A stretch of 62,178 nucleotides of DNA, the filler included, from Bipalium vagum (Eukaryota), in NCBI GenBank assembly GCA_037834085.1. It is 3 parts of 3 records of this genome, joined end to end, with 100 filler letters (N's around TTAATTAATTAA, not from the genome) between each part and the next. Parts side by side here need not be neighbours in the genome. Positions count along the whole stretch, not along the records: positions 18,757 to 42,551 come from JBBMKC010206376.1; 2 more parts are not named here. One strand, written 5' to 3'. The notes under the pieces are model-generated. The model ran no database searches, was not told where the DNA came from, and saw nothing but the letters and a program-made list of their open reading frames with translations. Numbering within the stretch: position 1 is the first letter of the stretch; each line of letters opens with the position of its first letter. Below, piece by piece: positions 3,101-51,992 of this stretch. The translations under genes and the position numbers were made by a program.

Positions 3101-3295
3101 ATGATACCAACGTCGTATTTTTCCGTCATGCGTTGTTGACTTAACCCTGAATGTTGATAATTGGTATACAAACAAAGTTACCTGCTCCGTCTGTCCTACT
3201 CTTAGGGATTCTTCCAGTATATTTGCTTCGCAAGAGATACACTCTGACCGTGCACTTCTGGCATATTCAGCTACAAATTTATAATCGTTTCCCAT
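130..3295 (-). CDS. PARP1: PARP1-like poly(ADP-ribose) polymerase, 5' part (multi-exon; continues beyond window start)
   Basis: ATG at 3295. PARP-type zinc finger FVAEYARSARSECISC...RWYHFNCFF (exons 3182-3295 and ~3007-3139). PADR1/Zn3 domain MQNKLLWSIRDHLK...VADCLVFGCLNPCPKC...YKCCNMFNNRSQC (~2520-2833). WGR-domain start PWNAILTMTDIFSDKNSFYK followed by a GT donor near 130. Short GT-AG introns restore the frame. Only one N-terminal finger is visible; intactness of the middle exons is uncertain. Confidence 0.8.
541..1745 (-). mobile_element. Degenerate mariner DNA transposon in PARP intron
   Basis: TA-flanked TIR ttaggctgtccggaaag at ~541; frameshifted transposase pieces (LITCEK, WDYKGIL, HHDNA, HLRHIALY..KKAK HTH). 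Confidence 0.85.
1780..2335 (-). mobile_element. pogo/Tigger relic in PARP intron
   Basis: Minus-strand pieces LLIVDN and AWSNVKPETIDNCFCKAGF, typical of the Tigger DDE C-terminus; terminal-like tacagcagaacccggg near 2335. Confidence 0.6.
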
Positions 3296-4165
3296 GTAAA
3301 CAAAGATCGTAACAGTAAAACAGAAAATTAAAAAAACGAGAGTAAAATAATTCCAAAAATGATTACAATTTTCATTTGTTAATTTGAGATATAAAACATC
3401 ATTTGTTTGTTTTAATTATTGTAGACAAATTGATTTTCTATTGTCTTTTCGTAACAGACTAACATTTGGATCGTTGTTATGGGAAACTAATTGGTGCTTG
3501 CAGTGAAATTGAGGAAAAATGATGATAGTAAAAATAATATTAATAACAATAATAATAATAAAATTATTATTATTAATATTAATAATAAAAGTAATCTCTC
3601 AATTATACCTCTTTTCGAAGAACTTATGCTTAATTTTAATTTTGAAAGAACATCCATGAAATATTTAGATTTCTGTTGTCATGAAAGAAAAGTTTTATTT
3701 GAATTAAAAAAAGTGCTGCAACATGTAATCATCATAACAAAGAAATTATTATGACTAAATTAAGTGACTGAAATGAATTTAAAAATTATAAAGTTATCTA
3801 TGCATGTGTTTATGATAAGAAATCAATGTTTTATAAAACAAAAAATAGTGTTTGCTTTATTTCAGGTGAATACTTTTGGAAATTCTTTTTTAGAGAAGAT
3901 TTATCGAATTTTTAGATGGTTCATTTTGTGCTTGAAAAATAATCCTGTTTTATGTGTAATTTGTATAATAATTCTATGTTTTAATTGAAAATCTTCAGTG
4001 ATAAATTTCGATAGAAAATAATTCTTAGACAGTTGCTCTGGTTTTATTTGAAATATCTTTCTTGCAATTTCTAGGAATGCACATGAAAATGTTAGAGTAT
4101 AAGACTCTATTTTCATTTTTTAAGAAAAAATTTAATTTTTTTTATTTTTTCAATCATTTTAATTT

Positions 4166-4679: not shown

Positions 4680-5760
4680 TCAATATAAAGCAAAATTTTT
4701 CTATTACCTATTTTAAGTTTTGTATCCCATTCTTGAGCCATTTTTCAAAAAGACTGGCATTCATTCATGCTTTACTGTTGGCAACATATATAAGTGGAAT
4801 CTATGCAATCTTAAAGCATCTTGGATTTTCTGATTTACCAATAATAAACAAAGGTAACTTTTCATTTCCAGTCATGTTATCACCAACCAAAACTGTTATT
4901 CTCTCTTTAATCATTTTGCCTGTCGTACATTGTTTCCAGAAAAGACCAGTTTCGTCCACGTTGAATACATCATTTGGATGATATTGCCCAATATTTTCTT
5001 GGAGCTTATCTTGCTGCCAATTATTAAATGAACCAATCTCTCCTTGATACGACTTGAAGACGATAGAATGACGTTGCAAAAACTTTTGAAGCCATCCGTT
5101 GCTTGCCTGAAAGTAGTTTATCTTTAAAGCTGTTTCAAGAGGTACGGTTTTTTCCTGTAAAAGAAGGCCAGTGACTGGAATGTTGTGGTTTTTAGATTGT
5201 TTAAACTTCATTAGAATCGCCTTATCGAGACTGTCATGTCGACTTTGATATATTCTTTTTCGTTTTAGTCCATCAACATCTACCATAGTGGCATTTTCGA
5301 TCGACGTCTTGGAATTTAGAATCCCAATAATGGTGGTTCTGAGAACTACAAAACGTTTGACCAATTCTGTATGGCTAGAATTCTTAAATGCAGCTTCAAT
5401 AATCTGTTTTTTTTTCATACAATGTCAAGATGCCTCTCTTTAAATGTTTTGGCTCTATTACACGGAATTTTATTTCTACAATTATAAATGAACTAAATAT
5501 CAATAATTAATAATAAATAATGATAAATCAATAAATAATACATAAATCATAATTTGAAATTTTTGCATAATGATTTTAAAAATTAAAACAAATTGAGTAT
5601 CGTTAAATAAAGGTTAAATTTAATGTAAATGTTTATTTGATATTAAAAATAATGTCTTTAAATAGAAGCTGTCGTTAAATAGAGGTTTTATTTAAGGTTT
5701 TCCTTTATCTTTTTCGTCGGGACCGCGCTCAAGCGTGGTTAAATAGATGTTTGATTGTAA
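4680..5760 (-). mobile_element. pogo/Tigger (CENP-B-like) transposon, 5' half
   Basis: ORF 4801-5418 with HTH_Tnp_Tc5 (FQASNGWLQKFLQRH), VFNVDETGLFW, KERITVLVGDNMTGNEKLPLFIIGKSENPRCFK; TIR ...gtttgattgta at ~5759. Confidence 0.9.
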
Positions 5761-7290: not shown

Positions 7291-8097
7291 TCAAGCGTAA
7301 ATATTGATCGAGTAATCGTTATAACGTCCAACTATTTCCAGAGATTTTCCACCCATTTTTGAATAGGTCCAGTCTACGTCTTTTCCATCATTGTTTACAT
7401 ATAAAATCTGAGGAAAAATGAAACCAGTACCATTTAGCCAGGTCTGCCCATATGGACAGTAATCTGGCTGGCTTATTACGACCAAAATGCCTGTATCTTT
7501 ATCACAGCCTCCAACATTGTTCGTATTGATATACATTCTTCTTGCCCAACTGAAGTAGCTAAATGTTAGTCCTCGAAGGTAATTAATTTCCCAAGGAAAC
7601 GAATTACGGAGGTTATCTTTATTAAACCATGAAGTGACATTATCAGTGGGCTTAACGTCGAAAAGTAGATCAACAACAACATTGTCATTGTTGTCTCTTA
7701 CGATGACTTCCATTGATAGCGGTCGTATAGTTTTCCATTCATCGAGAAGTGGACTTCTGAAACTTTCCAACGGACTGCTGTTCACAATTTGAATGAGTTG
7801 ACTGCCATTTCCAGAGTTAATATAAGAAAGGAGTGGATCAAGTCCACTTTTCGAAAACATTTTGTATAAGACGAAAGGACTTTTGATTTTCTGATAGACT
7901 TTCACTGATGATGGTTTGGACATTTTCACTGAGGGTTGATAACAGGTCTCATTGATCATTGCAAAATAACTTGACAATTCTAAATAGCTTGAAGCAGCGC
8001 ATCTTAAGTACGTAAGGGAATCGCTGGTAATAAAGTCAAACCAATATAAATATAAAACAAATATTAAGAAGAAATATGAGGTCAGTAACATAGTCAT
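7291..8097 (-). CDS. Intronless secreted protein of unknown function (268 aa), paralogue of 50984-51814
   Basis: Hydrophobic N-terminal signal-like segment. Shares FRS.LLDEW..IRP.SM...VRD, F.VK..D...SWF..DNL.NSFPW, GC..D.GI and IFPQI.YVN with the second copy. TATA-like tatata about 30 bp upstream; ends in TGA. Confidence 0.8.
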   Translation of the reverse strand: MTMLLTSYFFLIFVLYLYWFDFITSDSLTYLRCAASSYLELSSYFAMINETCYQPSVKMSKPSSVKVYQKIKSPFVLYKMFSKSGLDPLLSYINSGNGSQLIQIVNSSPLESFRSPLLDEWKTIRPLSMEVIVRDNNDNVVVDLLFDVKPTDNVTSWFNKDNLRNSFPWEINYLRGLTFSYFSWARRMYINTNNVGGCDKDTGILVVISQPDYCPYGQTWLNGTGFIFPQILYVNNDGKDVDWTYSKMGGKSLEIVGRYNDYSINIYA

Positions 8098-8384
8098 ATT
8101 AAACTATTTTTCAATTACTCCTTGCTTATATATATTACTCTATTGAAACAAAAACAAGCATTAATGATGTCTCAGTCTTTCAATTTTCTACATTTACCGC
8201 TTTTAAATTCTGTTTCCCTTTCATAAAATGACGTCATATTAATATTCAGAGACACGCTAAGGAATACTTAACAAAAAGTAAACATAAAATAAATAATTCA
8301 TTTGTTTTAGGTCTCCAATTGTCTGATGGAAACAATTATCAATAAACGTTTAAAAAAGAGTAAAACTTAAGAACCAAATTTTAT

Positions 8385-19639: not shown

Positions 19640-19800
19640 CTTTTTGGCATGGAGGATACAATTTTCTTAGCAGAAAGTTTGTACCATTTGTCTTGAACTG
19701 CTTTCCATAATCCATCAGCAGAGTTGTGCGCCATTGTGGTAACTTTTCTTTTGATGATACCCCAGACATTTTCGATGGGATTTAGATCAGGAGAATTATG
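19640..19800 (-). mobile_element. Tc1-like transposase C-terminal fragment
   Basis: NSPDLNPIENVWGIIKRKV...LWKAVQDKW. Confidence 0.7.
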
Positions 19801-22800
19801 GCCGAAAAACGTATGGCATTAAATTCGGCAAGAGTATTAATCACGACAAACACCTTGCCCAAGTCCACCGAATTGAGTCGAATAACTCACAGATGTACAA
19901 GTGCATCTGTGGGCTGATCCTCAACCGCGAGGCTTTCTTTCCCCATATTATTTCGCACAAAAAGGCAACTTCCTCACCTCCGAACAACTCGCTGGACGAC
20001 ATCCCCGTAACAGAGGATGACAAATCGTCCAGTTGACTCGGAGGGCATGCAATCGAGGCCTATCTGAGGGCCAACATCTTGGATCCCCTCATCATCTTTG
20101 TTAGGCCCGGGCCTGCGATTGCCCTCATGCAGAGGAATGCCCGCGACTTTTACTCCCTCTTCCCGTTCCACCGTATGTCCCAGTGGTCCATTCTCCTTTG
20201 GCCCATTCTTTGGGAGAGGAAACATTGGCTCCTCCTTATTGTTGACCACGCTCTTTCCTGCTCTTTCCTCCTCGATCCGGCCAAACCCTCCTTGTCTCGT
20301 GAGCAACTGGAGCTTCACCGTACCCTCAATACGACCATCACGTAGCTCTGTTGCACACTGGAGACAAATGTCATCACGGAGGGATCCATTGACCCAGATT
20401 GCGTCTTCCTTGTTGCCCTCTTTAACCATATCCTTCGGCACGGTCGCACTCCTCGCTCATGGAAAACGTTCAAGACCGTCTTGATTTTGAAGCCGGGCAA
20501 AATCAAGTTCTCCCATCTTCCTGGGTCTTGGCGGCCAATTGCAATCCTGGCCACATCCTATAGATTATTTGCCCTTCTCCTCAACAATCGTCTCTTGGAT
20601 TGGATAATCCCGGCGGGCCTTCTACACCGAAATCAGAAGGCCATCCACTCGCAAAATGGCTGCGGAGAGCACAATGAGACGATTGTTGGCCTATCTGAGT
20701 ATTGTCGATCGATCCAAAAAGAGCTTCATGTGTGCTTTTTGGATGTTGCGGAGGCATTCCTCAGTCTGCCACATGAGCTCCTATGGATCACCCTCCGTAA
20801 GTCTGGGATGGTTGATACCGACATCCAGCTTCTCCAGGATATTTATGAGGACAACTCCACCTTCTATGTGTGCCATCACATCACCACTCCATCCACGGCA
20901 ATACATATAGGGGTCAAATAGGGTTGTCCGCTATCGATGTCTTTGTTCTGTCTGTCGATGAACTTTCTTTTGGTACATTTCCAGTCATATGCAAATCGCC
21001 TTCAGGTCTTTGATGACACTCTCGACTGCCTTGCGTATGCCGATGATATTGCGGTCATAGCGCCGTCACACGGCAGACTTCAGACCATGATTGAGGCTCT
21101 TGTTGCCCTGACCAAGGCTATCCACCTGTCCTTCCGCCCCATCAAATGTGGATACCTTTGCCTTGGCACCCAGGCACTCCCTTTGCTTATCCATGGTGAG
21201 CTTGTCCCTCCAGTTGATCCGGCTCATGTGTACTCATACCTGGGAGTCACACATGGTGCTGACCTCCGCACATCTACGGATGAGATCCTGGAGCGGAATT
21301 TGGATGATTTCAAGCATATCATCCGGTCGGACCTTCACCCGGCCCAAATGATTCACTTGTACAAAACCTTCCTCCATTCGCGGCTTCCATTCCACTTTTC
21401 CAATCGGGTTGTGAACCATCTCACTCTTGCGTCGAAGCAGGCACGTCAATCCCTCCATCGGGAGCAACGGAAGGGTTATGATGAGCGGCTCCGCGAGATG
21501 TTCAGGGAAATCACGGATACAGATCGCCTCCAAAGCACGAATAAAGCTTTTCTTTATTCGCCAACATCACTGGGGAGCTTTGGAGTTACTCGCGCAATTG
21601 ACGATTACCACATATACAGTGTGGTCCAGGGGCTACGATATCTTACGAGCCCGGATATCATCTTTCGGACCTTTTGTATTAACCACCTGCAACATGTGGT
21701 CAAAATGCGCCAATCCGTGACTGCCCGTACGGATCTTGCTGTGGCCCTCTCTTGGCTCTCTAGCCAAAGAACTTTCCCACTTTTTGGACAGGCCACCTGG
21801 TGGAGCAAGATCCGTACGGCCTGTAAAGCCCTGCGTTCACAACGCATCAGTTGTTCATTCATGGTCGCTGGAGATGCTGTGGCCCTCACCGTCATTGTCT
21901 CGACTCCCCAGGAGACTTTCCAATATGTCTTTGATGGTGATAATATTCATAAAGCCACAGCCACCCTCCATGAATCGATTGGCTTCCAACACTTTCTGGA
22001 ATGGAAGTCGCATAAGTCTCAGGGCCTTTTAGTCCCTTGTTTCAGCCTGAGCCCTGTGTCCAACTACATATTACATAAATTCCACCTTCCTCCGGTCATT
22101 TGGCGCTTCCTGCTCAAAGCCCGTAGCAACAACTTAGGGCTTAACTATCGGCCGTTTAATATGGTCAAGGGAAGACCGCTCAACTGCCGACGTTGTAATG
22201 ACCATCCGGAAACCCAGGCCCACATCCTCAATCACTGTAAGAGTCGCCCCTTTGTGCCTACGGCCAAGCACAACTCTGTACTTAATATTGCGACTGAATT
22301 CCTCCGGGCCCTGGGTTTTGACGTTGACGCTGATACTCAGATTCCGGAAATTAATTCTCCTCTCCGTCCAGACCTGGTCATGCCGCACAAGTCGAAAAAT
22401 CAAATCCATATCTTGGATATTAAAGTGCCGTATGACTCTTTTACTAACTTCTCCAAGTCCCGCGAGGCCAACCGCACCAAATATACTGCGCTTGCGGACC
22501 AACTCGCTATCTCCTCTCGTGCGACTATATACCTTGACGTAATTAATGTCGGGTCCCTTGGCTCATGGGACAATGAAAATGATAAACCCCTGAAACAGCT
22601 TGGGCTCAATAAAGATCAACGCGGTGCCTTAGCCCACGCTTTTCTCTTGGCAGCTGTTAGAGAATCCTTCCACATTTACCTCACCCATGTCAAGGGTCTC
22701 CCTGGCCAGGGGCAGCCTAATTATGTAAATTTCTAAATTATTATCATTACTATCTATATTATCTATGTGACTATCATAAACTACTATTTCTTATTATTTA

Positions 22801-23110
22801 TTATTATTACACTTTCCTGTCTCATAACCTCTGTCTATATTCTCGTCCACTCAAACCTGTATATTTTAACTCATTTGTGTTGTATCTCTGTTGCTGTATT
22901 CCTCCCTTGTTTGTGTGTCCTGTGCTGGTCTTTGTACCTTTTTTCTTATGTGTATATATATCCGAATTCAGCTCCCGTTTCAGCCTCAGCCCCGACCAGC
23001 CCATCCTCCGATGTCCAGGCCCCAAGTGGATTGTTGTTCCTGCATTTTGTTTATTCAACTTGTTATTGCGTTGTCTTGTCTTACCCATTGTTTGTTCAAT
23101 TTGACCTTTT
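19800..23110 (+). mobile_element. NeSL-like RLE non-LTR retrotransposon, subfamily A copy 1 (5'-truncated, internally deleted, degenerate)
   Basis: One frame from ~19800: C2H2 finger (MYKCICG...HIISH), TGA 20034, Ulp1-like start (LGGHAIEAYL...RKHWLLLIVD...LLDP), deletion near 20350-20390, RT (WRPIAIL, FLDVAEAF, GVK*GCP, YADD), CCHC (CRRC...ETQAHILNHC), RPDLV...DIKVPYD endonuclease, stop at 22736. The 3' UTR is shared with copy 3; extra TAG stops at 20343 and 20919. Confidence 0.92.
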
Positions 23111-23159: not shown

Positions 23160-25450
23160 ATTGGTTTTCGCATTTCCATATGCGAAACTTCGGTTAATGA
23201 CCATTCTACGACTTCGACTCCAATTCCAAATAAAGTCACAGCACTTTATAGATCTCGTCGAGATCTTCCAAATGATACATCAGATGCAAAATTCGGACTG
23301 AAATTCAAACATTTACGCAGTGCCAAAGATCGCCAATGCAAAAAAGGCGAAACAATTTCGGCCGAAATTGTGAACAATGCGAATACTGGTCGGATCCAAC
23401 TGCCCGGCCTACCAATGCAAAGCCCTCGACGAGACGATTCCGAGGCAATGCCCAAATCCGCGGTACCACTCGCGGAACCGTGGGTAAATCGTGTTGACAG
23501 TGACCGGAGATGGATGAGCCGCCATGGGTCGACATTTTTCGACTTACAATATTGCTTACCCCGGCTTCCCTGTAAGGAAGCGTCTGGGGAGTCCTGTGGT
23601 CGTTCCAACGGCCGTGGGCAAGCCGAGTTGGCCGGTGGAAAGCCAACCGGAAGTAATTTAGTTAAGTGTTGTCACAAAAATTGAAATTTCCAAATTTTAA
23701 GTAAAGATTTTAATTTTAATACCCCCCAATTAGTTTTCATATTAAATTTATATAAATGTGGCACCAAGGAATCCATCTGTGATGGATTTAACAACAAATT
23801 TAGCCCAGCTTTCAACCTTTTCGTAAAAATACTTAATAAATTTAATTCCAAAATGGCAAAAATTTTATTTTGTCAATTTACGGCTAAATTTGACGATCTT
23901 GGTGTCAAATTAAAGATAAAAATTGTTAGAATACCGAGAACTGTTATGCGTGCGGTCCTTCCTTAATTATAACCGTTTTTATTATTGGCCATTTTACATC
24001 ATTTAAATTTGCGCCTAACAACGTAAATTTAAAAACCAATTTTAACAAAAATTTTTTGAAATTTTTAATTTTAGGTTTTTGACCAAATGTCTGGTACCAT
24101 ATAAAAGAGGATTTTTTTCTCTATTATATGATACCTTTACTTTTTTTCTAAAGAAAAATAACCGGAGATATTACAACTTTAAAATTACCGAATTTATACT
24201 TAAAGAAGTTAATAATTTAATTTTAAGTAAATTCTCCTGTTCTGACTTGACCACCATGACCAACACCGTTGTCCCCAAGACTGAAACTGTACTATTTAGT
24301 ACAACTCCAACGGTGCTCTATCTTTTGAGCCCTCTCCGGACTTATTTGATCGCTCCGGCCAAAAGCTATAGCCTTTTTATAATAATCACTTTACCTAGAA
24401 ATCTAAATAAATTTCTAGCTAAGTATTTCATTGAAAATTTCAAATCTTTGAATGCTTCCAATTCTCTAAATAATTTTTATCCACTACTTACCGCACACCA
24501 AATTAAAGACCGGACGATCCTCTCTCTAAATTACCCAAGCTCTAAAATTGATCGCCACCACAGCCAAAAATATTCAAATTCAAAAAATTCATCTTTTTAC
24601 CATTTTAGTGATCTGAGAATTAATACTTTTCGGCCTTACATCGAATTTTTAACCAAAGACCGCCGCTATAACAACTCTTTTAATGCATTTAATATTTTGT
24701 ATTATAAAACAAACCAGATGGACTGCAATGACTCCCACCATCTCTCCCAGGGCTACACCCCCATAAATTTATTCATTTTTTCCCGAATTTAATTGATTTT
24801 TATACAGAATCCTCCGTGAAAAATCACCATTTATGTTATAATTATGCGCAGGGGGGTGTTATGGAGCGCGTTCTCCCCATGGCAGCTGGCACTTAACCCC
24901 AGCTCTCCATTGGCCCGATTTCAAATTTTGTTTTTCAATGTATAAAAGTATTTTTGAATATTTTTATTTATATTTTTGCCTCATATATTAATTATATACA
25001 TTTAAACAACGTGTACAATGCGTTGTCCCTTGTCTTTGGTCACGAGGACCAAATGTCAAATCATAGCCGATGGGGCTACGAAAAACTTTCAAGTTTACAA
25101 CCAGGATAAGGTAACCCCATCGTATTCCGAGGTTGTATGTAAGACTGTTAGGGGGATTGACGGGCGGCTATATGAACTAGTCCCCCTGGAACCGGCAGGA
25201 CCGCAAGTACAACCACGGCCAACCCAGACCCCTGCCGGTCAACATAAAGGCGGCAATAAGAACGCAGGCCCAAAAAAGAATAATTTGAAAAAAACAGAGT
25301 CACGTAAAATCGGCCGAAATGAAAGACCTTATACGCATGATTTATGAGCTTAGGGCTGAAGTTAGGCGAGATGGGTCTTCAGGCGCTAAGCAATCAGAAG
25401 GACTAAGTCAAGAACAAGTTAGTCATAAGGATCATAAGTATAAGGGCGTA
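23160..25450 (+). mobile_element. Leader and ORF1 start of a third subfamily (C, related to B), 3'-truncated
   Basis: 23555-23645 matches 35090-35180; 24845-24915 matches 36092-36150; ORF 25018 (KCQIIADGA...VTPSYSEVVCKTVRGIDGRLYELVP) matches 36221/36313; 23169-23270 matches 42101-42210. Confidence 0.8.
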
Positions 25451-26419: not shown

Positions 26420-27170
26420 CATGTCCCGCGCTCGCTCCTCTTTTTTATCGCTTCTAGCTTCATAGCTATGATCAAAAGTGAACTAGCCAATCAGCACGAA
26501 GCTTTTGATTTCCACGAAATTCCATTGGTTTACATACAAGCCAATCAGAATTCGTTTTCAATTATGCTACACAAATTGCAAGAATTTGACATAGCTGGAA
26601 ATACCGACGTCCAATTCCGTCAATTTATGCCTCAAAGTTCCGGAAATTTTCTGCCGCCCGACGATTGGGCTATGCCCCAGCGTAGCTGGGATGAAGAATT
26701 TTCAAATTTTTCCGAAAATTGGAATTGCAGAAAAATTATGAACATGTGGGTTTTTTCCCTTGCAAAGGGAGTTTTACCACATGTAAAATGCGGTAGTTTA
26801 CTTGACCATGATTCCATCTTGATGAATCTCTCTTCGCAGTACACCTCTCTACTGGATTCAATATTCGTCGTCCCGACATCAACTTGGTTCTCACCCAAGA
26901 AATTTAGCAGACATATTAGGATTCGCCTATATTTTTATATGAGAAAAATTTCGGTCCGATCTTGCCCCTTTCCAAAGTTAGGAGGGTTCAAAGTTGGCCC
27001 CTTTTTTCACTTATTATTTAAATTATCAAAATTTTCGGGCACTTTCACATGCTCCCCCAGTCACACCATCATGTGCCAAGGAATGTTATGGTAATTTTAA
27101 ACATCCCCAAACGTCTATTATGCATCCGAGACATTGTCCTGGCCCTGGGGGAGCCTCTGTATTGTACTTA
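26420..27170 (+). mobile_element. Internally deleted leader unit of the RLE element (B-type), with U2-like head and CCAAT boxes
   Basis: 26422-26481 is identical to 27172-27231; 26600-26900 matches 34800-35100; 26900-27050 matches 35850-36000; gccaatca/attgg motifs at 26486-26550. Confidence 0.75.
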
Positions 27171-27171
27171 T

Positions 27172-29970
27172 TGTCCCGCGCTCGCTCCTCTTTTTTATCG
27201 CTTCTAGCTTCATAGCTATGATCAAAAGTGATTTAGCCAATGAGCTTGAAGCTCTTGTTTTTATCGATTTTCTATTGGTTCACATAGGAACCAACGAGAT
27301 ACCGATTCCAATTACAGTATACAAATTGGACTAAATGCTCAATATGGAAAATCTGGACTCCCAATTCCCCGTGGATATGCCCCAGATCTTCGAAAAATTT
27401 TTGCTGCCCGACGATTGGGCTATGCCCCAGCGTAGCTGGGATGAATTTTCTCCAAATTTGGAGAAAATTTTTGGAAGCGAAAAAATATGGAGCATGTGGC
27501 TTTTATCCCTTGCTAAGGGAGTTTTGCCACATGTAGAATGTGGTAAATCTGTTCTTTTAGTGGCCAGATCTCCGCCTTCCCGTTTAGACGCCGCCGAAAT
27601 CCCAATGTTTCCTGAAGCTCGGCTGCTCCCGTCTGGCCTGAGGGGCCCGATGCCCCATCCCGAATTCCAGCGGCACAGTCCAGATCCTATTCCAGCCTCC
27701 CAAAGTGCTCTGGATGCCCTATGGTCCTCGCTGAGGACTCCAGGTGACCATTCGTCAAACATTTGTACATTTTTCTCAATGTTGATCACTCACTTTAACA
27801 TTTTTGACATTATTAATACTGTTTATGTTTTTATCTATGTGTATGATGCCTTAATACCCCTTAAAACCGGCCCTTCTGGCCAAATTTTTAATTTTTATCA
27901 CTATTTCACGTTATATGAGGCTCCCCACCCTTTTGCTAAGTATCTTTTAAACTTATGCATTTCTTGCGCCCATTTTTTGGCTGCTGCCTCCCTTGATGCC
28001 GAACATCACCCTCCTAAAGCATCAAGTCTTATCTCTTTTTCCTTTTCCTGCTTCCAAAACCAGTTTTTCAAGTCTTTTAAATTATCACCACCAATGGGGA
28101 GCCCCAATATTATACTGTATATAACTAATTTATTTGTTTATAAAATAATTTACGAAAATAAAAAGTCCGAGATCCCGGGCCAAAATTATATAATTAGTAA
28201 AAATTTTAAAATTATAAGGTTATTAAAAAAAAATTAGCTCAATCCGTGGCCGGGATCAAAAGTTATGGGCTTTTTAATTTTCCGATTTATAATTGTCAAT
28301 TATTAAATAACTATAAGATTCTACTTAGAGTTATTTGCTATATTTATAATCATATTTGCATTGTTAATTTTATTGATATTTTTACCAATTTAAATTTGAA
28401 TTGCCCTCTGGCCATCTCCACTACTCCCACCTGTCCGTCCTTGACTTCCGGCTGTCTTCCGGTCTCCGTTTTTAGCCATAATTTTGATTGCGAACTTGGC
28501 TCTTTCCTACTGACCTTTTCTGCTGTTTTTGCCACCCTCTTTCGGCTCTGTGCTCACCTCTTCTATCAACAGTTAGTTTTCGCTGCCTCGGTGAGCGCTG
28601 TTAAGGTTCAAATTCTTCGCATGGCAGCGCCCAGTCATATTCCGGTTTTCTACAATCTAAGCTTCTGGAGGACATTCCAGAACACCGAATATGTCCCTCC
28701 AGTGGCTGATGCTTCGCCGTCTCACCCGCCTGTCTCTCCCCCGGCGATCCGACGAAACCACCGACGTAACCGGCGTTGGGGTAAGGGAGGAAAAGGGAAA
28801 TCTAACCCACGCCCTTCTCCTAGTACATCTCTTCCTGAATTTGAAAATCTAATCATTTCCTGCCCTTCTGACTCGTCCTCTGGCCGCACCGTTTCCATCC
28901 GAAGTGGCCCAAATAGACCTCCGGCTCAACCTCCTAGTGAATTTATTCCTACTTGGTTCCCCTCACCTAAGCCTTCATCTCCTGTTCCGATTATTCAATC
29001 TCCGGCTCCGCCTCCTCCTCCTCCTCCTAAGAAACATGTGACATTCAAGGATGTCATCTTGAAGGACCCTGCTAAGATCAACACCTCCATCAAACCGAGG
29101 CCTCCAGCATCTCCAAAAAACCCGCCTCCAAAGGGTCCAAATCCTTCGGATAAAAAACCTCCATCTTCCGGCAAACAAAATCTCTCAACTGGGCAGGAGA
29201 AGGCCCCCCCAGTTGAGGATTTCCTAGCGAAATTTTCCCTTGGCCCTCCGCGGAGATGGGTAAAACGCCCCCATCCAAATGATATCGCCTTGACTGCGAA
29301 CCCTGGCCGCATTGTGTGCAAGGGCTTCACATGCCTTTGTGGAAGGGATCCATCCCTCCAATGGCCTTCGTCAAAGCCTAATATGGAAGCCGCCACGAAG
29401 CTTTGTACGGAGATTCTCCTCGATATTGGCTGGAATCTGCCTTTGAATCCTATTGCTCCTCCGGCATCCACTGTTCCCCCGGCTCCTTGTGTCACTCCGA
29501 ATGGCTCGGACGCTTTGCCCAACACATCTGTTTCGTTGCCTCCGGCCCCTCCTGCTGTTCCGGCTCCTCCTCCTCCGTCTCCTCCTGTTAACCAACTGCC
29601 TTCCAATGACTTGTTGCCTCCGGAATCTCCCAGGGTGGACCTGGATGAAGAATCCGATGTTGACGACATCTCCAATCTCAGTATGGACTCTGACCCTCCT
29701 TCCCCTGTGGCTGAGGACCCTTATCACGGCGTCCTAGAGTCGGCATGTTTATTCGTCGATGCGGAATGCCAATCGGACATCTTTTTTATCGACCAGGCAG
29801 TACAGACAGGGCCATGGACCCCTGTTGAAATTTCCACACAAGCTGACCTGCCAGTCCTTCCACGTCCGTCCATGATAAATACTCTACGCGTTTTGGCCCC
29901 CGTGGCCGCCTTCATCCTAACCCCTTCTCAGAATAATAACCATCCCCACCTCTCTTCTCTGACCCTCGCG
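27172..29970 (+). mobile_element. Subfamily A copy 2: leader plus proline-rich ORF1 N-terminus, fused in frame to subfamily B
   Basis: Collinear with 37595-39790. Pro/Ser-rich ORF (MAAPSHIP..., CKGFTCLCG) switches abruptly near 29971 to sequence matching 36615 onward. Confidence 0.85.
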
Positions 29971-32900
29971 ATAGAAATAAAAGAAAAAGTTAAGTTACCG
30001 GAGAATAAGTATAAGGGCCCCAGCCTTACCATCGAGGCCACCAACGGGGATAGGAAAGTGATGGTCACGGGTGAAGAGGAATGGACCGTCGTAAGAGGAA
30101 AGAAGAAAAACTGGCAGAAGAAGCCGCCAGTGAAATTCCACCAAATCAAAAATCATGACAAACCCAAATGGCAAAATAAGCAAATGCCACATGGTAACCA
30201 ACAGCCGAAAAATCCGCAGCATCCACCGAACAAGAAGCAACAATCTAATAAAACCACATCACAACAACAGCATAAAAATCTACAAGAATCCAACAAGAAT
30301 AAATCAAATAAAGATCCAAACCAGATACCGTCTAACACTGAAAATCTGCAAACTCCATCGAACACCAGGCTATCAACAACTGAAAATACCAGACCAGAAC
30401 CAACACATAAGCCGAATAATTCTAAAACGGCTCCAAATTACAATGTCCCTAAGTACAACCGGGAAAACTGCCCAAGGCCGGATTTGATTGGGCAGAAGAG
30501 ATGGATATTCGCTGGGTTGCGCCCAATCCATGGGCAAAACTCCAATATGTTTAGGGCGACATATCGGGAGATTAAAGTGAACCGACGGAATATGCCCCTC
30601 CTGGTGGACTACCGGTACAATCCGGACATGGAGAAGAAGAAAATTATTGGCTTCGGGTTTGCTCCGCCCGAAAAACCAATCATCACCAAAAAACAAGAAA
30701 ATCCTACGGAGCCAACCATCAATCTTGGTGAGCAAACAATACCAACGCAACCACTCGACACGATCCATGAAACGCCACAAGAAACAGTCATGGAGCCGGA
30801 AACACAATTGATGGAAGTCGATCTCGACGCCGAGCCGACTTGCTCCATTGAAGAAGATTACTTCCCACCTCCACCAGCTGAGGAAGATGATGTCATAATC
30901 CTTGACGAACAAATGCTAGAGGATGACGAAGATGATGACATCATTCCTCCTCCACCAATGTTCAAATCCACAGTTGAAACACAAACTATGATTGAAACGC
31001 GGGATTTCGGCACCCAGACTATGCAAATGAACACCATCGAAACATCCCCGCATGTCACCAGAAAACCTCTTAAACGCCGGAAAACAATGATAACCCAATT
31101 CAATGAAAATAACTCTGATGATGATGTATCTATTATATCAGTCGCGTCCTCCAGGAAATCATCCTCAAACAACGCCCGACCGCTAATCCAAACAACACTC
31201 AAAACCATCAATGCACCTGTCGCAACACCACACGATGTTTACGCTACCAATCCCGGCTGTGATTCACTCTCAGACCTTGATTCTGAAAGTGAATTAAATG
31301 AAACGATATCACAACCAATCATCAACGTGGAAAATATAGCGGAATCCTGTAATGGCTCCATGGATTTGAATACCATAAATTTCTTCGCAGGAGCAATTGA
31401 CAATACGGAAACAATAGCAACTTTTAAAGCCTACAACTCCCTAACGTGTAACTATTGTAACAATAAATACACCTTCAATAACGGCAAGTCCTGTGGGTTC
31501 GACGCCCACCTTCTCAATAATCACCAAATCAAACACACACCAGACTCTATGTACCGATGCATCTGTGGTCAGGCGATAGCTCGGAAAAATCTGCCCTCGC
31601 ACATCAGCTCACACATCAAAGCCACAATGCCAACATCAACCGACGTCTGCGACATTCCACTCACTGCCGCAGACTTGGAGCAAAGCTGACTAGGCAGCCA
31701 CCAGATAGAGGCCTATCTCAGGACCAAAATTACCATCAAGAACCACATCTATATCAGACCCGGTCCTGCGATAGCCCTATCTCAAGGAAAGATTAGAGAT
31801 TTTTACGAAATCTTTCCTTTTCATCTACTCGGCGAATGGCAAAAAATCATGTGGCCAATACATTGGAAATCACACCATTGGCTCATCTTTCTTGCAGACC
31901 GTACCACCAGAAGAACATTTCTATTAGACCCGCAACAGCCAAACCTCGATGAAGCCCAATTGGACCTTTTTTGCCTCCTCACGAACATCATAAATAAAAT
32001 TGGCGCGCCTCTCGACCCAGATCCAATGGAAATGGCCAAACCAGATCACCAGCCAATCCAAACAACACTCAACGACTGTGGATATTTCATCCTTCAATAC
32101 GCCATTGACTTCTCGGCAAATAACGATTTCCACAGCCCAAATATTACAAATTTAAAAGAAGAAATCAACAGCATTGTCACATCAATACTCTCCACCAGGA
32201 TCCGCAAACCAAATGGCAACACATCAACACCAACAATCCATCCAATTCTTGCCGAGGCCTGCATACAGATGGAAAATACCGACATTGACCTCAACTCCAT
32301 CTTAGAGTATGCTAGGCGAGCCACAGCTGACTTATATCCAGCTAGATTTTCAAAAATTATCCTCAAAAAATCACCGGCTCATCTCCTCCAAGACGAATCC
32401 ACCAACTCCGGATATCTCTTGCGACAGAAATATGAGAAGAATCCCAAGGACGTGTTTAACTCACTACTACCATCAAGCAAACCGTCCACCTTTCCATCGA
32501 TTGAGGATATCTCTAGCCATTTTTGCCAAACAACACCAGATCCAATTGACCAAAATTTTCTCCACACACTGCCTCGACATGCAATCCATTCGATTTTCGA
32601 CCAAATCGAACCAACTGATGTTATTTCCGCACTGAAATCTGCCAATAAATCAGCCCCGGGCAATGACGGCATCACTTATTGTGATTGGAAAGAAATTGAC
32701 CCAGACTGCATCTTTTTAACCAAACTATTCAACACCATCATCAGCCGAAAATCCATTCCAAGTCAATGGCAAGAATATAAAACAACGCTACTCCTCAAAC
32801 CAGGCAAAGATGAAAATTCACATCTCGTTTCATCATGGCGACCGATTGCAGTCCTATCCACATCATATCGGATCTTTGCTCTTGTTATAAATAATCGTCT

Positions 32901-34745
32901 CCTGCAATGGATCAAAAATCACCAATTAATTAGCCGCCACCAAAAGGCACTGTTTTCTGACAATGGATGTGCCGAACACAATGCCACCATCACCGGCATT
33001 ATGGAAGCCTCAAAAATGAACAAAAGCCAATACCATATCTGTTTCTTAGATATCGCCGAGGCGTTCCCAAGTGTACCACATGAATTACTATGGGAGACAC
33101 TCTCTAGATCAGGAGTTAGCAAAGACGCCGTTGACATGCTAAAATTAATTTACGAAAACAACAAAACTTTCTATGTTTGTCACCATCTAACTACGGCTCC
33201 AATTCAAATGTTCAAAGGGGTTAAACAGGGTTGCCCACTATCAATGACCCTGTTCTGCCTCGCCATCAACTTTATCATCTGCAAAATGGAAAATCATAAC
33301 CCGAAATTACAAGCTTTCAATTCCGAATGGGCCTGCCTTGCATATGCCGATGACCTGGCCATTCTAGCACCAACCAGAGAGGCACTGCAAAATAAGATCA
33401 AAATTATCACCACACTGGCCACGGGTATCCATTTCAAATTCCGTCCATCAAAATGTGGATACTTAACAAACAAATACTCTGCTCCAATCCGAATATATGA
33501 CCAAGAAATACCAAATATCCAACCAGAAAATGTCTACACATATCTCGGAGTGGTACATGGAGCAGACTTACGGAATTCAACAGACAAAATTCTAGAACAA
33601 AACCTCCGTGATTTACAAACTATTGCAAATACCGAACTCCATCCAGCACAAATCGTCCACGCGTATAAGTCTTTCATTCACTCGCGATTACCTTTCCATC
33701 TAGGTAACCGAGTGATTGACACCTTGACCTTGTCCTCACCATCAGCAAGACAAGCAGAACATCGTGAAGTCAAGGTGGGTTACGATGAAGCGGTCAGGAA
33801 AATCATTCGTGAAGTCACTGACTCATACCGACTTCAAAGTACCAATAAGGCCTACTTATACGCCCCAACAGCACTCGGTGGACTCCAAATCACTACGGCC
33901 TATGACGATTACAACGTCTGCAGCATTATCCAAGCCCTTCGTTTGTTAACTAGCACTGACAACAAGGTGAAAAATTTCTGCAGATCACATCTCCAACAAA
34001 TCGTAATCTCTCGGAAAGACAACAGCCAGGCCCCAATTGAAGAAAGAATGTTACTCTGGTTAAGTGACCGAACAACTGTCACAGGCTTTGGCGCCTCCAC
34101 ATGGTGGACAAAAATCCGCACGGCCATCAGAACTCTCCGTCGCATGAACATCAACTGTGACTTCCACAATGCGATGGATGAAATTCACCTGCGCATTGAA
34201 ATTATAGCACCAAACAACAATAATGAATTACAAGCATCAATTTTCAGCAGAGAAAATATCCACCTCGCCACAGCCCATCTACACGAGGCAATCGCTATGG
34301 TTTATTTCAAAGAGTGGACAAAACATCAGTCCCAAGGCAGACTTGTGCCCTGCTTCAGCCGTAGCCTCAAATCCAACACCATCCTCGGCAAATACCATCT
34401 GCCATCGGCCGTATGGAGATTTCTTCTCAAGCCCAGAAATAACAACCTTGGCCTCAATTACCGAACTTTCAATATTGCCAAGTCCAGGAATATCATGTGT
34501 CGCCACTGTCGCACACAGCCGGAATCACAAGCACACGTTCTCAACCATTGTCCGGCCAAATCCCACATTACCACGATAAAACACAACAAAGTACTCTATA
34601 AAATCGGTAATTGTCTCCGAAATCTCGGCCTCGATGTGGACATTGACACCGCTCCATCTGAAATTAACACCACACTTCGACCAGATATCATTATTCGCAA
34701 CAAATCCAAAAATACCATCAACATTTTGGATGTCAAAGTCACATA
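29971..34745 (+). mobile_element. NeSL-like RLE retrotransposon, subfamily B copy 1: ORF1 C-terminus, UGA, Ulp1-like protease, RT, truncated endonuclease
   Basis: Single frame with one internal stop (TGA 31687-31689). Two C2H2 fingers (CNYC...H....H; CICG...H...H); protease triad SHHWL / LLDP / QTTLNDCG; RT (SAPGNDG, WRPIAVL, FLDIAEAFPSVPH, GVKQGCPLS, YADD, YLG); CRHC...ESQAHVLNHC; RPDII...DVKV, then a junction into the next leader. Confidence 0.93.
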
Positions 34746-37597
34746 GGAGCCAACCAGACACCGATTTCAATTAGAAGATACAAAATCAACCAAATGCGAA
34801 ATTTTCAAATTCTGGACGATCAATTCCTCGTGGATATGCCCCAGATCTCAGGAAAATTTTTGCTGCCCGACGATTGGGCTATGCCCCAGCGTAGCTGGGA
34901 AGAATTTTTTCAAAATTTTGGAAAAATTTTTGGATGCCGAAAAATATGTTGCATGTGGCTTTTGTCCCTTGCTAAGGGAGTTTTGCCACATGTCAAATGT
35001 GGTAATTTACTTGTACATATTACCGTCTTGATGCCTCCTCAGTGGATTCCTCGACCTGCTCCGATATTCACAGCCCCGACTTCAAATTGGCTCTCACCCC
35101 GGCTTCCTCGTAAAGAAGCGTCTGGGGAGTCCTATGATGATGTAAATCATCATGGGCAAGCCGAATCTGCCGGCGGAAAGCAGATACGAGGTGGGAATTT
35201 CGTTTTTTTCAGTTGGATGGGGTTAATTAATGCTTCGAAATTTACAAAATTTTTATCACCCCCTTGCTCCATCAGTACCCTAGCCCATCTGTCACCATAT
35301 ACTGATCAATCTTCAGCCCCTTTTTACTTCTTGGCGGCAAAATTCTCTTACAACAGTCAATTTTTTATTATCACGTTGTTATACAAAACTTTTAAATATT
35401 GCGAATTGGTCCCTTATTTGGTCATCAATAGATGCCAAATTTCATTGCGAATTTATCTAGACCTTCGCTGTCTCTATACCAGTCTTTACTCCGGCGAAAT
35501 TTACATCCAAACTATGGTCTTTTTAACATCATTTGACGCTTTTGAATTTCCGCGTCCAAATATAAACTTATTTATTTACTTAAATAATTATAAATATTTA
35601 TATAGTAAATCTTTAATTCCTAATATCTTTATGAATCCTACGACTGGAACCATCAAACTTACGCAGTTAAGAAATTTGATTGCGCTCTTTCATATGATCC
35701 ATCGACCATCAATCTTAGTTCAGTCGTTTTTTAGTTATCAACGATCCAAATATCCATTAATTAACTATAATTATTATTACGTATCTCTAAGTAAAAACAG
35801 ACTATTTTCGCCGACGATTTCCTTGGCTTCCACTTGCTCTATGTTATTGAAATTTGGTAGGCATCTTAAAATCCGTTCATATTTTTATATGAAGCAAAAT
35901 CTTGGCTTAATCTTGCCCCAATCCAAAGTTATGAGGGCTCAAAGTTAGCCCCGTTTTCCACTAATTATCTAAGCTATCTTTTTATTGATAACTTTCCAAA
36001 TTTTGTAATTCCAACTTTTATTAACAAAAATTTCAACTTTTTTTATAATTTAAATCACCTAAATTCGAACTCCCTTCCTGTTGGGACTAATTATCTGCGT
36101 GGGGGGGATAAACTGGATATTGGCACTGATCCCCAATTTTCCAATGCCCTTTTTTATGTTATTTGTTCTTATCTCTATATTATTATTAATATTTTATCCC
36201 CGATTTACACTAAAATCTTCATGACGAGTATCTATAGAGCGATGCTCGAGACATCCTTAGCCACCAGGGCTAAATGTCAAATAGTAGCCGATGGGGCAAA
36301 TAAAGATTTTAAGTGACCCCATCGTATTCAGAAGTACTAACCAAAACAGTTAGGGGGTCTGATGGGCGGCTCTATGAATTAGTTCCCATCGAACCAGTAG
36401 GGGCCACCAACCAACAATCACGGCCAACTCCGACCCCTACTGGCAAAAATAAAGGCGCCAATAAGAACTCAGGCCCAAAAATCCCATCTAAAAAATCCAA
36501 CAGTCACTCAAACTCGGCCACTTTTAAAGACTTAATAGGTATGATCGAGGATCTTAGAAATGAGATTAGGAAAGACAAAGAAGAAGGCGCTAGGCAGAGC
36601 GAGACTGTAGGGATAAGAGAAAAAGTTAAGTCACCGGAGAATAAGTATAAGGGCCCCAGCCTTACCATCGAGGCCACCAACGGGGATAGGAAAGTGACGG
36701 TCACGGGTGAAGAGGGCTGGACCGTCGTAAGAGGAAAGCAGAAAAACTGGCAGAAGAAGCCGCCAGTTAACCAACATCAAAGCCATAGCAAATGGCAAAA
36801 TCAAAAGAAGAACGATCTTCCAAGGCCACCAAATAAAAACCAGAAGTCAAACAAAGGCCAACAACGAAATTCTCCAAACCAGAAGAACAAACCACCTGAA
36901 AAAGTCTTGAGTGAAAAACTGCCAAACACCGAACAGCAAAGTCCACCAATCAATGTGAATATATCAACGGAAAGCACTATAAAGGAGCCAAGACATAAGC
37001 CGAACAACTCCAAAACGGCTCCAAATTACAATTTCCCAAAGTACAATGGGGAAAACTGTCCAAGGCCAGATCTGATTGGACAGAAAAGATGGATCTTCGC
37101 TGGCTGGCGCCCAATACATGGGCAAAACTCCAATATGTTTAGGGCGACATATCGGGAAATAAAAGTGAACCGACGAAATATGCCCCTCCTGGTGGACTAC
37201 CGGTACAATCCGGATATGGAAAAACGTAAGATAATCGGCTTTGGATTTGCCCCACCTGCAAAGCCCGTTGTAAACAAAAATCAAATGGAACCTGAACAAT
37301 CAACTATCATCGAACAATCAACTATCATCGAACAATCAATGCCAACACAACCAGAAAACACAATCATTGAACCACCACAAGAAACAACCTCAGAGCCGCT
37401 ATTGATGGAGGTCGACCTTGATGCTGAACCGAACTACACTATCGAGGATGAATATTTCCCACCTCCACCAGCCGAGGAGGATGATGTCATAATCCTCGAC
37501 GAACAAATGCCAGAAGATAACGAACATAATGACATCATCCCTCCTCCACCAATGTTCAGATCCACAGTTGAAACGCAAACTATGATTGAAACGCGGG
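34742..37597 (+). mobile_element. Subfamily B copy 2: leader and ORF1 N-terminal part, 3'-truncated
   Basis: Leader matches 27280-27545. ORF from ATG 36221 (frameshift near 36312) matches 25018 and 29971-31000; ends at gaaacgcggg. Confidence 0.85.
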
Positions 37598-40500
37598 CCC
37601 AGTCCCAGGTTCCAGTGGCACAGTCCGGGTCGTATTCCCAGCGACCAAATAGCTTTGGCTGCCCTATGGTCCTCACCTGGGGCTACAGGTGACAATTCGT
37701 CAAACTTTTGGATATTTTTCTCAATATTGAACACTCACTTTGACAATTTTGATATTATTTATACCATTTATGTTTTTATCTGTATGTATGATGCTTTACT
37801 GTCCCTTAAAACCGGCCCTTCTGGCCAAATTTTTAATTTTTATCAATATTTTACATTATATGAGGCTCCCCACCCTTTTGTTAATTATCTTTTTAATCTA
37901 TCTATCTCCAGCGCCTATTTTTTGGCTGCTGCCTCCTTTGCTACCGTACAACATCCCTCTAAAACATCAATCCTTATCCCCCTCTCCTTTTCCTACTCTC
38001 ACATCCAACTTTTTAATCAATTTGAAAATTCACCATCAATGGGGAGCCCCAATATTATACTATCTGTATTTAATGTATTTGTTTATCTTATTTATTCGAA
38101 AATTAAAAAGTCCAAGATCCCGGACCAAAATTACAAAATTAATAAATATTATAAAATTATGAGTTTATTAAAAAAAAATTTAATCAAATCCATGGCCGGG
38201 ATCAAAAGTTATGGGCCTTTTAATTTTCAATATTATAATTGCATATTTCTAAATAACTCTAAGTTTCTACTTAGAGTTATTTACTATATTTCAAATGTTA
38301 ATTTTATTGATAATTTTAATTATATCCTTACCAAATTAAATTTGACTTGTCCTCTGGCCACCTCTATTGTTGTCTCCTCTCCGTCCGTGACTTCCGGTTG
38401 CCTTCCGGTATCCGCTTTTAACCATAAATCTGACCCTGAACTTGGCTCTTTCCTGCTGACCTTTTCCGCTGTTTTAGGCACCCTCTTTCGGCTATGTGCT
38501 CACCTTCTCTGTCAACAGTTGCTTTTTGCTGCCTCGGTGAGCGCGGTTAAGGTTCAAATTCTTCGTCTGGCGGCGCCCAGGCATATTCCGGTCTTCTACA
38601 ACCTAAGCTTCTGGAGGACATTCCAGAACACTGAATATGTCCCTCCAGCGGCTGATGCTCCGCCGTCTCATTCACCTGACTCCCCCCCGGCGATCCGACG
38701 TAACCGCCGACGTAACCGGCGTTGGGGTAAAGGAGGAAAGGGGAAATCTAACCCACGCCCTTCTCCTAATGCATCTCCTCCTGAATTCGAAAATCTAATC
38801 ATTTCCTGCCCTTCTGGCTCGTCCTCTGGCCGCACTGTCTCCATCCGAAGTGGCCCAAATAGACCTCCGGCTCAACCTTCTAGCGAATTCATTCCTACTT
38901 GGTTCCCTTCACCTTTGCCTTCATCTCCTGGGCCTATTTTTCATTCTCCGGCTCCGTCTCATCCTCCTCCTCCTCCTAAAAAACATGTGACATTCAAGGA
39001 TGTCATCTTAAAGGACCCTAGTAAGATCAGTACTTCCATCAAACCGCGGCCCTCAACATCTCCAAGGAATCCGCCTGCAAAGGGTCCAAATCCTTCTGGT
39101 CAAAATCCTTTTTCCTCTGGCAAACAAAATCTCTCAACTGGGCAGGAGAAGGCCCTCCCAGCTGAGGATTTTCTGGCGAAATTTGCCCTTGGCCCTCCGA
39201 AGAGATGGGTAAAACGTCCCCATCCAAATGATATCGCCTTGACTGCGAACCCTGGCCGCATTGTGTGCAAAGGCTTCACATGCCTTTGCGGAAGGGATCC
39301 ATCCCTTCAATGGCCTTCGTCAAAGCCAAATATGGAAGCGGCCACGAAATTTTGTAAGGAGATTCTCCTAGATATCGGATGAAATCTGCCTTCGAATCCC
39401 ATTGCTCCTCCGACATCCACTGTTCCCCCGGCTCCTTGTGTCGCTCCGAATGCCTCGGACGCTTTGACCAATACATCTGTCCCTTTGCCTCCGTCTCCTC
39501 CTGTTAACCAATTGCCTCCCAATGACTTGTTGCCTCCCAATGACTTGTTGCCTCCGGAATCTCCCAGGGTGGACCTAGATGAAGAATCCGATGTTGACGA
39601 CATTTCCAATCTCAGCATGGACTCTGACCCTCCTTCTCCTGTGGCTGAAGACCCTTGCCACGGCATCTTAGAGTCGGCATGTTTATTCATTGATGCTGAA
39701 TGCCAATCGGACATCCTCTTTGTCGATCAGGCAGTTCAGACAGGGCCATGGACCCCTGTTGAAATTTCCACACAGGCTGACCTGCCAGTCCAGACCTCCT
39801 GGGCTTTGGAGTTACTCGCGCAATTGACGATTATCACATTTGCAGTGTGGTCCAGGGACTGCGTTATCTAACAAGCGTTATCACCTTTCGGACCTTTTGT
39901 ATTAATCACCTGCAACATGTGGTCAAAATGCGACAATCCGTGACAGCCCGAACGGATCTTGCTGTGGCCCTCTCTTGGCTCTCTAGTCAGAGAACTTTTC
40001 CGCTTTTTGGGCAAGCCACATGGTGGAGCAAGATCCGTACGGCCTGTAAAACCTTGCGTTCACAAAGTGTCAACTGCTCATTCATGGTTGCTGGAGATGC
40101 TGTGGCCCTCACCGTCATTGTCTCGACCCCCCAGGAGACCTTCCAATATGTCTTTGATGGCGATAACATCCATAAAGCCACGACCACCCTCCATGAATCG
40201 ATTAGTTTTCTGCACTTCCTGGAATGGAAGTCGCACAAGTCCCAGGGACTTGTAGTTCCTTGTTTTAGTCTGAGCCCTCTTTCAAACTATATACTCCATA
40301 AATTTCATCTCCCTCCGGTCATCTGGCGTTTTCTGCTCAAAGCCCGCAGCAACAACTTGGGGCTTAACTTCTGGCCATTTAATATGGTCAAGGGCAGACC
40401 GCTCAACTGTCGTCGTTGTAATGTCCATCCGGAAACCCAGGCCCACATTCTCAATCATTGTAAGAGTCGCCCCTTTGTGCCTACGGCCAAGCACAATTCG

Positions 40501-41310
40501 GTTCTTAACACTGCGACTGAATTCCTCCGGGCCCTGGGTTTTGACGCTGATGCGGATACGCAGATTCCGGATCTCAACTCTCCTCTGCGTCCTGATCTGG
40601 TCATACGGCACAAATCGAAAAACCAAATCCATATTTTGGATATTAAAGTGCCGTATGACTCTTTGACCAATTTTTCCCAGTCTCGTGAAGCCAACCGCAC
40701 CAAATATACATCGCTTGCGGACCAACTCGCAATCTCCTCCCGAGCGACTGTATATCTGGATGTGATCAATGTCGGGTCCCTTGGCTCATGGGACGTTGCA
40801 AACGACAAGCCCTTGAAACAGCTTGGGCTCAATAAGGACCAACGTGGTGCCCTAGCCCACGCCTGGCTCATGGCAGCGGTCCGGGAGTCGTTTCACATCT
40901 ACCTCACCCATGTTACGGGTCTGCCTGGCCAGGGGCAACCAAATCTATAATTTACCCTATTATCATTATCATTACTATCTATTTTATCTATGTAACTATA
41001 ACAATTTAAGACTTTTTATCTTATTCTTATCTATATTCTCCCTTTCCTTACCTCTGTCTATATTCTCCTCCACTCCAATATGTACATTTCTAATTCCTTT
41101 GTGTTGTATCTCGCTTGTGTATATGTCCTGTGCTGGTCATTTTACTTATTTTCCTATGTGTTTATATATCCCAATTCAGCTCCCGTTTCAGCCTCAGCCC
41201 AGACCAGTCCATCCTCCGATGTCCAGACCACAAGTGGATTTTTGCTCCAGTAGTTTGTCTATAGTTTTGTATAGTTGACTTGTCTTAGTACCGTTTTTAC
41301 CCGACCTTTT
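37595..41310 (+). mobile_element. Subfamily A copy 3: leader, ORF1 start, large internal deletion at ~39795, endonuclease C-terminus, 3' UTR
   Basis: 37595-39790 is collinear with 27640-29856; 39800-40950 is collinear with 21570-22730 (CRRC...HILNHC, RPDLV, DIKVPYD); 3' UTR block 41173-41240 matches 22965-23032. Confidence 0.9.
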
Positions 41311-51814: not shown

Positions 51815-51992
51815 AATAGAATTTTGAGTTATGTTAAAATATTAATGGAATAATGAAATCAGTGACTGCTACTGTATATATATATTCGATGATGATTGGT
51901 TAACTCTGTTTTGGAACATTCCAGCTTTTGTGAATTATAAAAAATTCATTTTAATATCACCTATTATCTTATTTGTCACCCGAGAGATACCT

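Follow-up and report, generated by a model that had tools for sequence, protein, structure and literature searches.

A family of non-LTR retrotransposons in the genome of Bipalium vagum carries an in-frame TGA at the Trp position that opens its Ulp1-like protease domain. We consider it probable, at roughly 0.8, that this stop is passed by programmed UGA readthrough, which would produce a fusion of ORF1, protease, reverse transcriptase (RT) and endonuclease.

In the proposed mechanism, a single in-frame UGA-C separates ORF1 from the frame for protease, RT and endonuclease. Ribosomes would read through the UGA a few percent of the time, and a single RNA would thereby serve for abundant ORF1 protein and a small amount of the full-length enzyme. 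A near-cognate tRNA (Trp, Arg or Cys) may decode the UGA, probably aided by the C at +4 and, in some lineages, by a 3' stem; insertion of Trp would restore the usual WL motif. Only the fusion would contain a complete protease, which may then cleave the polyprotein. Sister families appear to use an upstream UGA-C site with a conserved hairpin for the same purpose. A broader reading, on which we find the balance even, holds that readthrough is the standard control of the ORF1-to-polymerase ratio in a large NeSL/R5-like branch of LINEs, and would be the first such case among non-LTR elements. Two positions would carry the signal: one upstream, a UGA-C whose hairpin is kept through amino-acid changes, and one within the protease fold, a UGA that would make both protease activity and self-processing of the polyprotein (at Gly-Gly or Ala-Gly) dependent on readthrough.

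The element and its copies in the window

The window, by which we mean the whole stretch of DNA analysed (62,178 nucleotides in three joined parts), contains as its second part (18757-42551) one complete contig of an AT-rich animal genome of 441 Mb. By its predicted domains, the element that carries the stop is an RLE-type non-LTR retrotransposon of NeSL/R5-like build (Table 1). The frame 3' of the stop in the subfamily-B copy matches Peptidase_C48, over its cut-off, and RVT_1 (E 2.6e-26). A CCHC finger and a restriction-like endonuclease follow 3' of the RT, and their motifs (CxxC...H...C and RPD...DxKVPYD) were read directly from long copies.

The earlier note had placed the stop of a subfamily-A copy at 20034-20036 in the frame DIPVTEDDKSSS*LGGHAIEAYLRAN and had aligned it without gaps to DIPLTAADLEQS*LGSHQIEAYLR of subfamily B; we recovered the same position and frame as well as the alignment, with the B stop at 31687-31689. 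The other nonsense mutations mentioned there for the A copy are the TAG codons at 20343 and 20919. This copy is dead: it is truncated at its 5' end at about 19805, carries these two TAGs and has lost about 654 nt including the region of the catalytic Cys. The 'B' copy of the window is a composite, an A-type 5' piece (27172-29969) on a B-type body whose 3' end is cut. Individually the two copies prove nothing, and genomic copies were therefore counted.

Table 1. Coordinates of the features discussed, given along the window except for the site-2 loci in the last row
Feature	Position	Strand	Remarks
Decayed subfamily-A RLE non-LTR copy: ORF1 end (zinc finger), TGA, Ulp1 (part deleted), RT, CCHC finger, restriction-like endonuclease	19805..22736	+	
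Last ten codons of ORF1, part of the Ulp1 fold	20004..20033	+	Counterparts in the B model (residues 11-20) align with yeast Ulp1 from residue 434-441
Site 1: conserved in-frame TGA at the Ulp1 Trp position	20034..20036	+	121/127 in-frame copies
CTC Leu codon, +4 C context	20037..20039	+	C in 124/127; CTA 70, CTT 29, CTC 21, CTG 2
Predicted long-range stem, 5' arm, from +16	20049..20061	+	93.9% of cells paired, 19 copies of A and one sister lineage
Predicted long-range stem, 3' arm, PGPAIA codons	20109..20122	+	Pairs with 20049..20061
Copy-specific nonsense TAG codons, A copy	20343..20345 and 20919-20921	+	
Joint of in-frame internal deletion of ~654 nt, A copy	20383..20389	+	Compared with A copy L127
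3' untranslated end of the A copy	22737..23083	+	Also in a second A fragment, 39803-41287
A-type 5' piece fused in frame to B-type ORF1	27172..29969	+	79-88% identity to 5' parts of A copies L127, L132, L133, L239
B-type ORF1, ending with two zinc-finger-like motifs and the Ulp1 start	29977..31686	+	
Equivalent stop of subfamily B, context TGA CTA G	31687..31693 (TGA 31687-31689)	+	
B ORF2: Peptidase_C48, RVT_1, CCHC finger, endonuclease	31690..34743	+	3' end cut by the 5' region of another element
Site-2 loci	L161, L172-L174, L176, L185-L187, L189, L191-L220; e.g. L173:1661-1735		In-frame TGA-CA and hairpin, upstream of the protease

A conserved TGA among genomic copies

Protein, DNA and Pfam searches of the genome gave several hundred candidates, and 190 loci were fetched. 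The first 120 yielded 112 called copies; three misframed ones (L062, L106 and L110) were dropped and 18 more distant ones added, which makes 127 in-frame copies. Also left out before this count were the eight uncalled loci and L151, in which the TGA lies one codon off. At the position in question, hereafter site 1, the codon is TGA in 121 copies and TGG, CGA, AGA, TCA, GGA or TAA in one each, counts that overstate independence since the copies are related by descent. The sole copy with TGG is broken 3 codons before and 9 codons after the site, and TGA is present in every one of the 13 copies whose frame is open for 380 codons or more before it and 180 or more after it. The 19 lineage representatives are 25-66% identical in protein, with synonymous sites near saturation. 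A search for sequencing runs that contain the junction listed no RNA run; the contigs of the one run listed, possibly the window's own source and not counted as support, agreed with the TGA in all of the 40 matches listed.

The 30 fetched loci of subfamily A gave TGA in 24 cases, TGG in one, CGA in one and no call in four. Its most intact copy (L035/L127) has 1128 open codons ahead of the site and 469 behind it, and the TGA is its only stop. These counts bear out the earlier suggestion that the stop at the Trp of the Ulp1 WL motif is a feature of the family; TGG in the consensus or in the youngest A copies would speak against it, and the best-preserved A copies carry TGA.

Four control Trp columns, 50-64 codons downstream, read TGG in 361, TGA in 14 and TAG in 4 of 392 cases. 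Similarly, the ORF2s of five copies from four lineages, 1106-1144 codons long, contain 80 TGG and no inner TGA, and one of them ends in TGA. The code is therefore standard and the effect local. The base at +4 is C in 124 of the 127 copies, and Leu directly after the stop is encoded by CTN 105 times and by TTR once, against 578 CTN and 157 TTR summed over other Leu columns (TTR about a fifth). As judged from sequence, the TGA of site 1 is real and no decay mutation.

A stop inside the Ulp1 domain

In the NeSL and cellular proteases of S5 Fig of PMC4640811, the Ulp1 motif opens with W. A model of the read-through junction reached a mean pLDDT of 79 and aligned to SENP5 and Ulp1 from residue 11, ten residues before the stop, with Z of 7.1-7.3, middling values that refer to a partial domain. 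Foldseek returned rows of the Ulp1 family only, all of them weak, and sequence searches of the PDB gave no significant match. On the side of the sequences, dN/dS was 0.17 over codons -16 to -1 and 0.15 over codons +1 to +27 in 15 closer pairs, used in place of raw pN/pS among deep lineages, which is saturated.

The first Met after the stop lies anywhere from codon 29 to codon 159 in long copies, is not conserved and in some falls past catalytic residues. The catalytic Cys is an ordinary codon further downstream. Since the Ulp1 fold begins before the stop, both flanks are under selection, the Met varies and the lineages share no splice donor, translation most likely crosses the stop at site 1. 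In this context, site 1 combines features expected of UGA-C readthrough, namely a conserved UGA with C at +4 and selected sequence before any start codon.

A conserved aromatic-Gly-Gly or Ala-Gly motif directly precedes the zinc fingers or the protease in the window (31400-31480) and in homologues, in the forms NFFAG, NFFGG, NVFGAG and KLFGG, with LKGGS in L161, L171 and L173. It resembles an Ulp1-type self-cleavage site, a likeness that we mention as an idea only.

RNA structure downstream of site 1

The earlier note had drawn a local stem between CUCGGA and UCUGAG just after the stop. It can be drawn in the copy of the window, but over 19 related copies 72.6% of its cells are paired, no better than in shuffles. 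A different, long-range stem joins +16 to +28 with +76 to +89; in 19 copies, drawn from subfamily A and one sister lineage, 93.9% of its cells are paired, and three of its pairs have changed on both sides. Of the earlier interpretation, the conserved stop at the Ulp1 Trp stood and the local stem was not supported; the stem with support is the long-range one, in subfamily A and that sister lineage.

A joint fold revealed no stem common to all site-1 lineages. Folding beyond codon shuffles (z <= -2) was found in 7 of 15 lineages after the stop, yet also in 6 of 15 in the interval before it. In these alignments C at +4 is general at site 1, and the predicted stem belongs only to subfamily A and one sister lineage.

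A second site in sister families

Sister elements of the same genome have TGG, TAY, CTN, TTG or TTT at the Ulp1 position (W, Y, L or F), so that Trp is not essential there. In them a further in-frame stop lies some 40 to 230 codons upstream of it. In all eight first-found copies with the region in view, this site 2 reads TGA CA, exactly 16 codons before a [LM]TGV[DE] motif. A genome search with a pattern that leaves out the stop gave at least 118 matches against 0 for a control, and TGA precedes 38 of the 39 matches examined. From +10 a hairpin of 15 bp follows, 95.6% paired over 26 copies and with three pairs changed on both sides; its covariation score was reached by none of 500 shuffles. 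The search pattern itself selected for the 5' arm and the CA and left the 3' arm free.

Two proteins from other assemblies start with MPASV...LTDAD and MPASD...ISDAE, in the same register as the site-2 junction, and their residue changes appear to be those that compensating base changes in the hairpin would cause. The UGA-C and hairpin of site 2 likely do the same job as site 1. A 3' stem 8-16 nt after the stop, a further feature expected of UGA-C readthrough, is supported at site 2 and in subfamily A with one sister lineage, and is not common to all site-1 lineages.

In some sister families two or three Ulp1-like domains stand in tandem, of which the later appear degenerate (L161, L172-L174 and L169; proteins P0003, P0057, P0058, P0066 and P0067).

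Relatives in other assemblies

A metagenome contig of another assembly (L221), 39% identical to subfamily B, has TGA CTA at the same codon. The RT tree was built only from elements of the B. vagum genome and unnamed relatives, with sponge elements outside; in it the site-1 elements and eight unnamed proteins form a clade (support 93/97), and the site-2 elements fall into two further clades outside this one. For each of these eight proteins, which bear an RT and come from other assemblies, the called start is a Met within the protease that lies downstream of site 1, as expected of gene calls below a stop. Three short predicted proteins from other assemblies (P0048, P0050 and P0051) read W, W and L across the site-1 position, and in the protease tree they group, with weak support, among site-1 members. 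The stop at site 1 may not be universal. Searching for relatives that are longer and fused yielded a single distant protein of 3798 aa, which is weak evidence either way, and viral contigs contained no relative.

Alternative explanations

Alternatively, ORF2 might be made on its own, either through reinitiation past the stop or from an internal promoter, with a non-AUG start right after the UGA. Termination-reinitiation is the described route in the non-LTR elements SART1 and LINE-1, which in SART1 needs downstream structure (PMC5972666), and the retrotransposon Tca2 has a promoter at its junction (PMC2194720). At site 2, moreover, most copies have GTG or ATG as the third codon past the stop. 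We give this explanation a small chance. The codon after the site-1 stop is CTA, CTT or CTC in 120 of 127 copies and offers no usable start, the unconserved first Met comes too late for the catalytic residues of some long copies, and the ten residues upstream of the stop belong to the Ulp1 fold, while at site 2 the long copy L161 has GCA for GTG, and the GTG is accounted for by hairpin pairing. A-to-I editing of the RNA from UGA to UGG, which would give Trp, is very unlikely. The stop is one transition away from TGG at a Trp position and has double-stranded RNA nearby; yet edited RNA would be copied into TGG elements, and TGG is found in one of 127. The A also lies outside the supported stems, its 5' neighbour is a G, which ADAR disfavours, and site 2 is not at a Trp motif.

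Removal of the stop by splicing, or its bypass by trans-splicing, would be in keeping with the tie of NeSL elements to spliced-leader genes. No offset of a GT donor is common to more than 5 of 20 lineages, however, and three lack any donor within 60 nt; protein conservation extends on both sides as far as the stop, and the intron-less copies that spliced RNA would yield were not seen, which makes this route less probable again. Hardly plausible, and lowest in our estimate, are a general meaning of TGA as Trp or selenocysteine in host or element and a dead mutation shared by descent, even though relatives have Trp at the position and many copies are decayed. A variant code is contradicted by the TGG at other Trp codons (361/392, and 80/80 in long ORF2s) and by the ORF2 that ends in TGA. 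Selenocysteine is disfavoured by the position, which is not a Cys, and by an Rfam search of 18757-42551 without a SECIS match at E <= 1. A dead mutation could not persist across lineages with saturated synonymous sites and intact ORF2s of 1100 codons.

Relation to known systems

Programmed UGA readthrough, the reading we prefer, is known in viruses and LTR elements. For non-LTR elements, a literature search outside R5's original description and Repbase found no report of it. The R5 element from the planarian Girardia tigrina, attributed to Burke et al. (2003), is reportedly NeSL-related, from a flatworm and with two ORFs; it may carry the same stop, which would lower the novelty. New here are the second site and the covarying stems.

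In architecture, the B. vagum element resembles NeSL-1 and its relatives of Caenorhabditis as well as Utopia-1_TSP, which are described as RLE-type with N-terminal zinc fingers, an Ulp1-like protease, RT, a C-terminal finger and an endonuclease (Kojima and Jurka 2015, PMC4640811). Families of Utopia generally code for a single protein according to that paper, whereas the B. vagum element departs from the single-ORF architecture and is split by a conserved in-frame TGA. Likewise, the NeSL proteases listed there have a sense codon at the site-1 position, where the B. vagum elements have UGA.

The closest parallels to the signal are viral. In the type II readthrough of alphaviruses as summarized in PMC13517186, Sindbis virus has UGA CUA with a stem at +16 and VEEV has UGA CGG with one at +12; the same source places the gag-pol stop of MoMLV within the first protease residues. 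The B. vagum elements share with these alphaviruses and gammaretroviruses the UGA-C and a 3' stem, which lies at +10 or +16, together with a structural ORF upstream and a polymerase downstream. They differ in being LINE-class elements rather than viruses, and in having a site-1 stem that is lineage-specific. As to the amino acid inserted, UGA readthrough of human MDH1 is described as giving Trp and Arg (PMC5133446).

Among retrotransposons, Tca2 of Candida albicans also has gag and pol in frame with a UGA between them, but it is an LTR element, and in the yeast reporters described in PMC2194720 its junction alone drove no readthrough. Similar junctions can therefore fail in reporters, which counts against readthrough. 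SART1 and LINE-1 are non-LTR elements in which one RNA yields less ORF2 than ORF1; they reinitiate at an AUG after termination (PMC5972666), whereas the B. vagum elements have no conserved AUG and a domain that straddles the stop.

How LINE-class elements produce their second protein is a standing question, to which the described answers are separate starts and the reinitiation and 2A skipping reported for non-LTR elements in PMC5972666. Retrovirus-like readthrough, if true, would add a route for this class, and the two sites would offer natural, covariation-backed signals for the study of readthrough. Gene callers and repeat libraries, for their part, would truncate an intact family of elements or mark it as dead.

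Neighbouring features of the window

Copies of different subfamilies lie nested in long clusters, in the window (18757-42551) and also at L133, L134, L135, L236 and L239. The A/B chimera of the window is in frame, with its junction at about 29970. The 3' flanks of five long copies, compared by eye, gave no common insertion target, and copies are often mutually nested; the nested subfamilies may target each other. No tRNA or Rfam family was found in 18757-42551. Next to the A copy lies a decayed fragment of a Tc1-like transposase, recognized by eye (19640-19804, minus strand).

Two kinds of repeat occur in 5' regions, both without an Rfam match. One is a structured RNA-like motif at 23540-23643 and 35077-35181, with two hairpins around CTGGGGAGTCC...GGGCAAGCCG, which may be a ribozyme variant. 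The other is the A-type 5' end, repeated at 26422-26795, 27172-27546 and 34739-35005 with a conserved GATTGGGCTATGCCCCAGC block. Elsewhere in the window, two related single-exon ORFs of about 270-285 aa lie on the minus strand of different stretches (7291-8103 and 50984-51841); they have signal-peptide-like starts and no convincing Pfam family. Also on the minus strand, at 2996-3415 and 4801-5424, are a PARP-type zinc finger exon and a decayed Tc5/pogo-like transposase.
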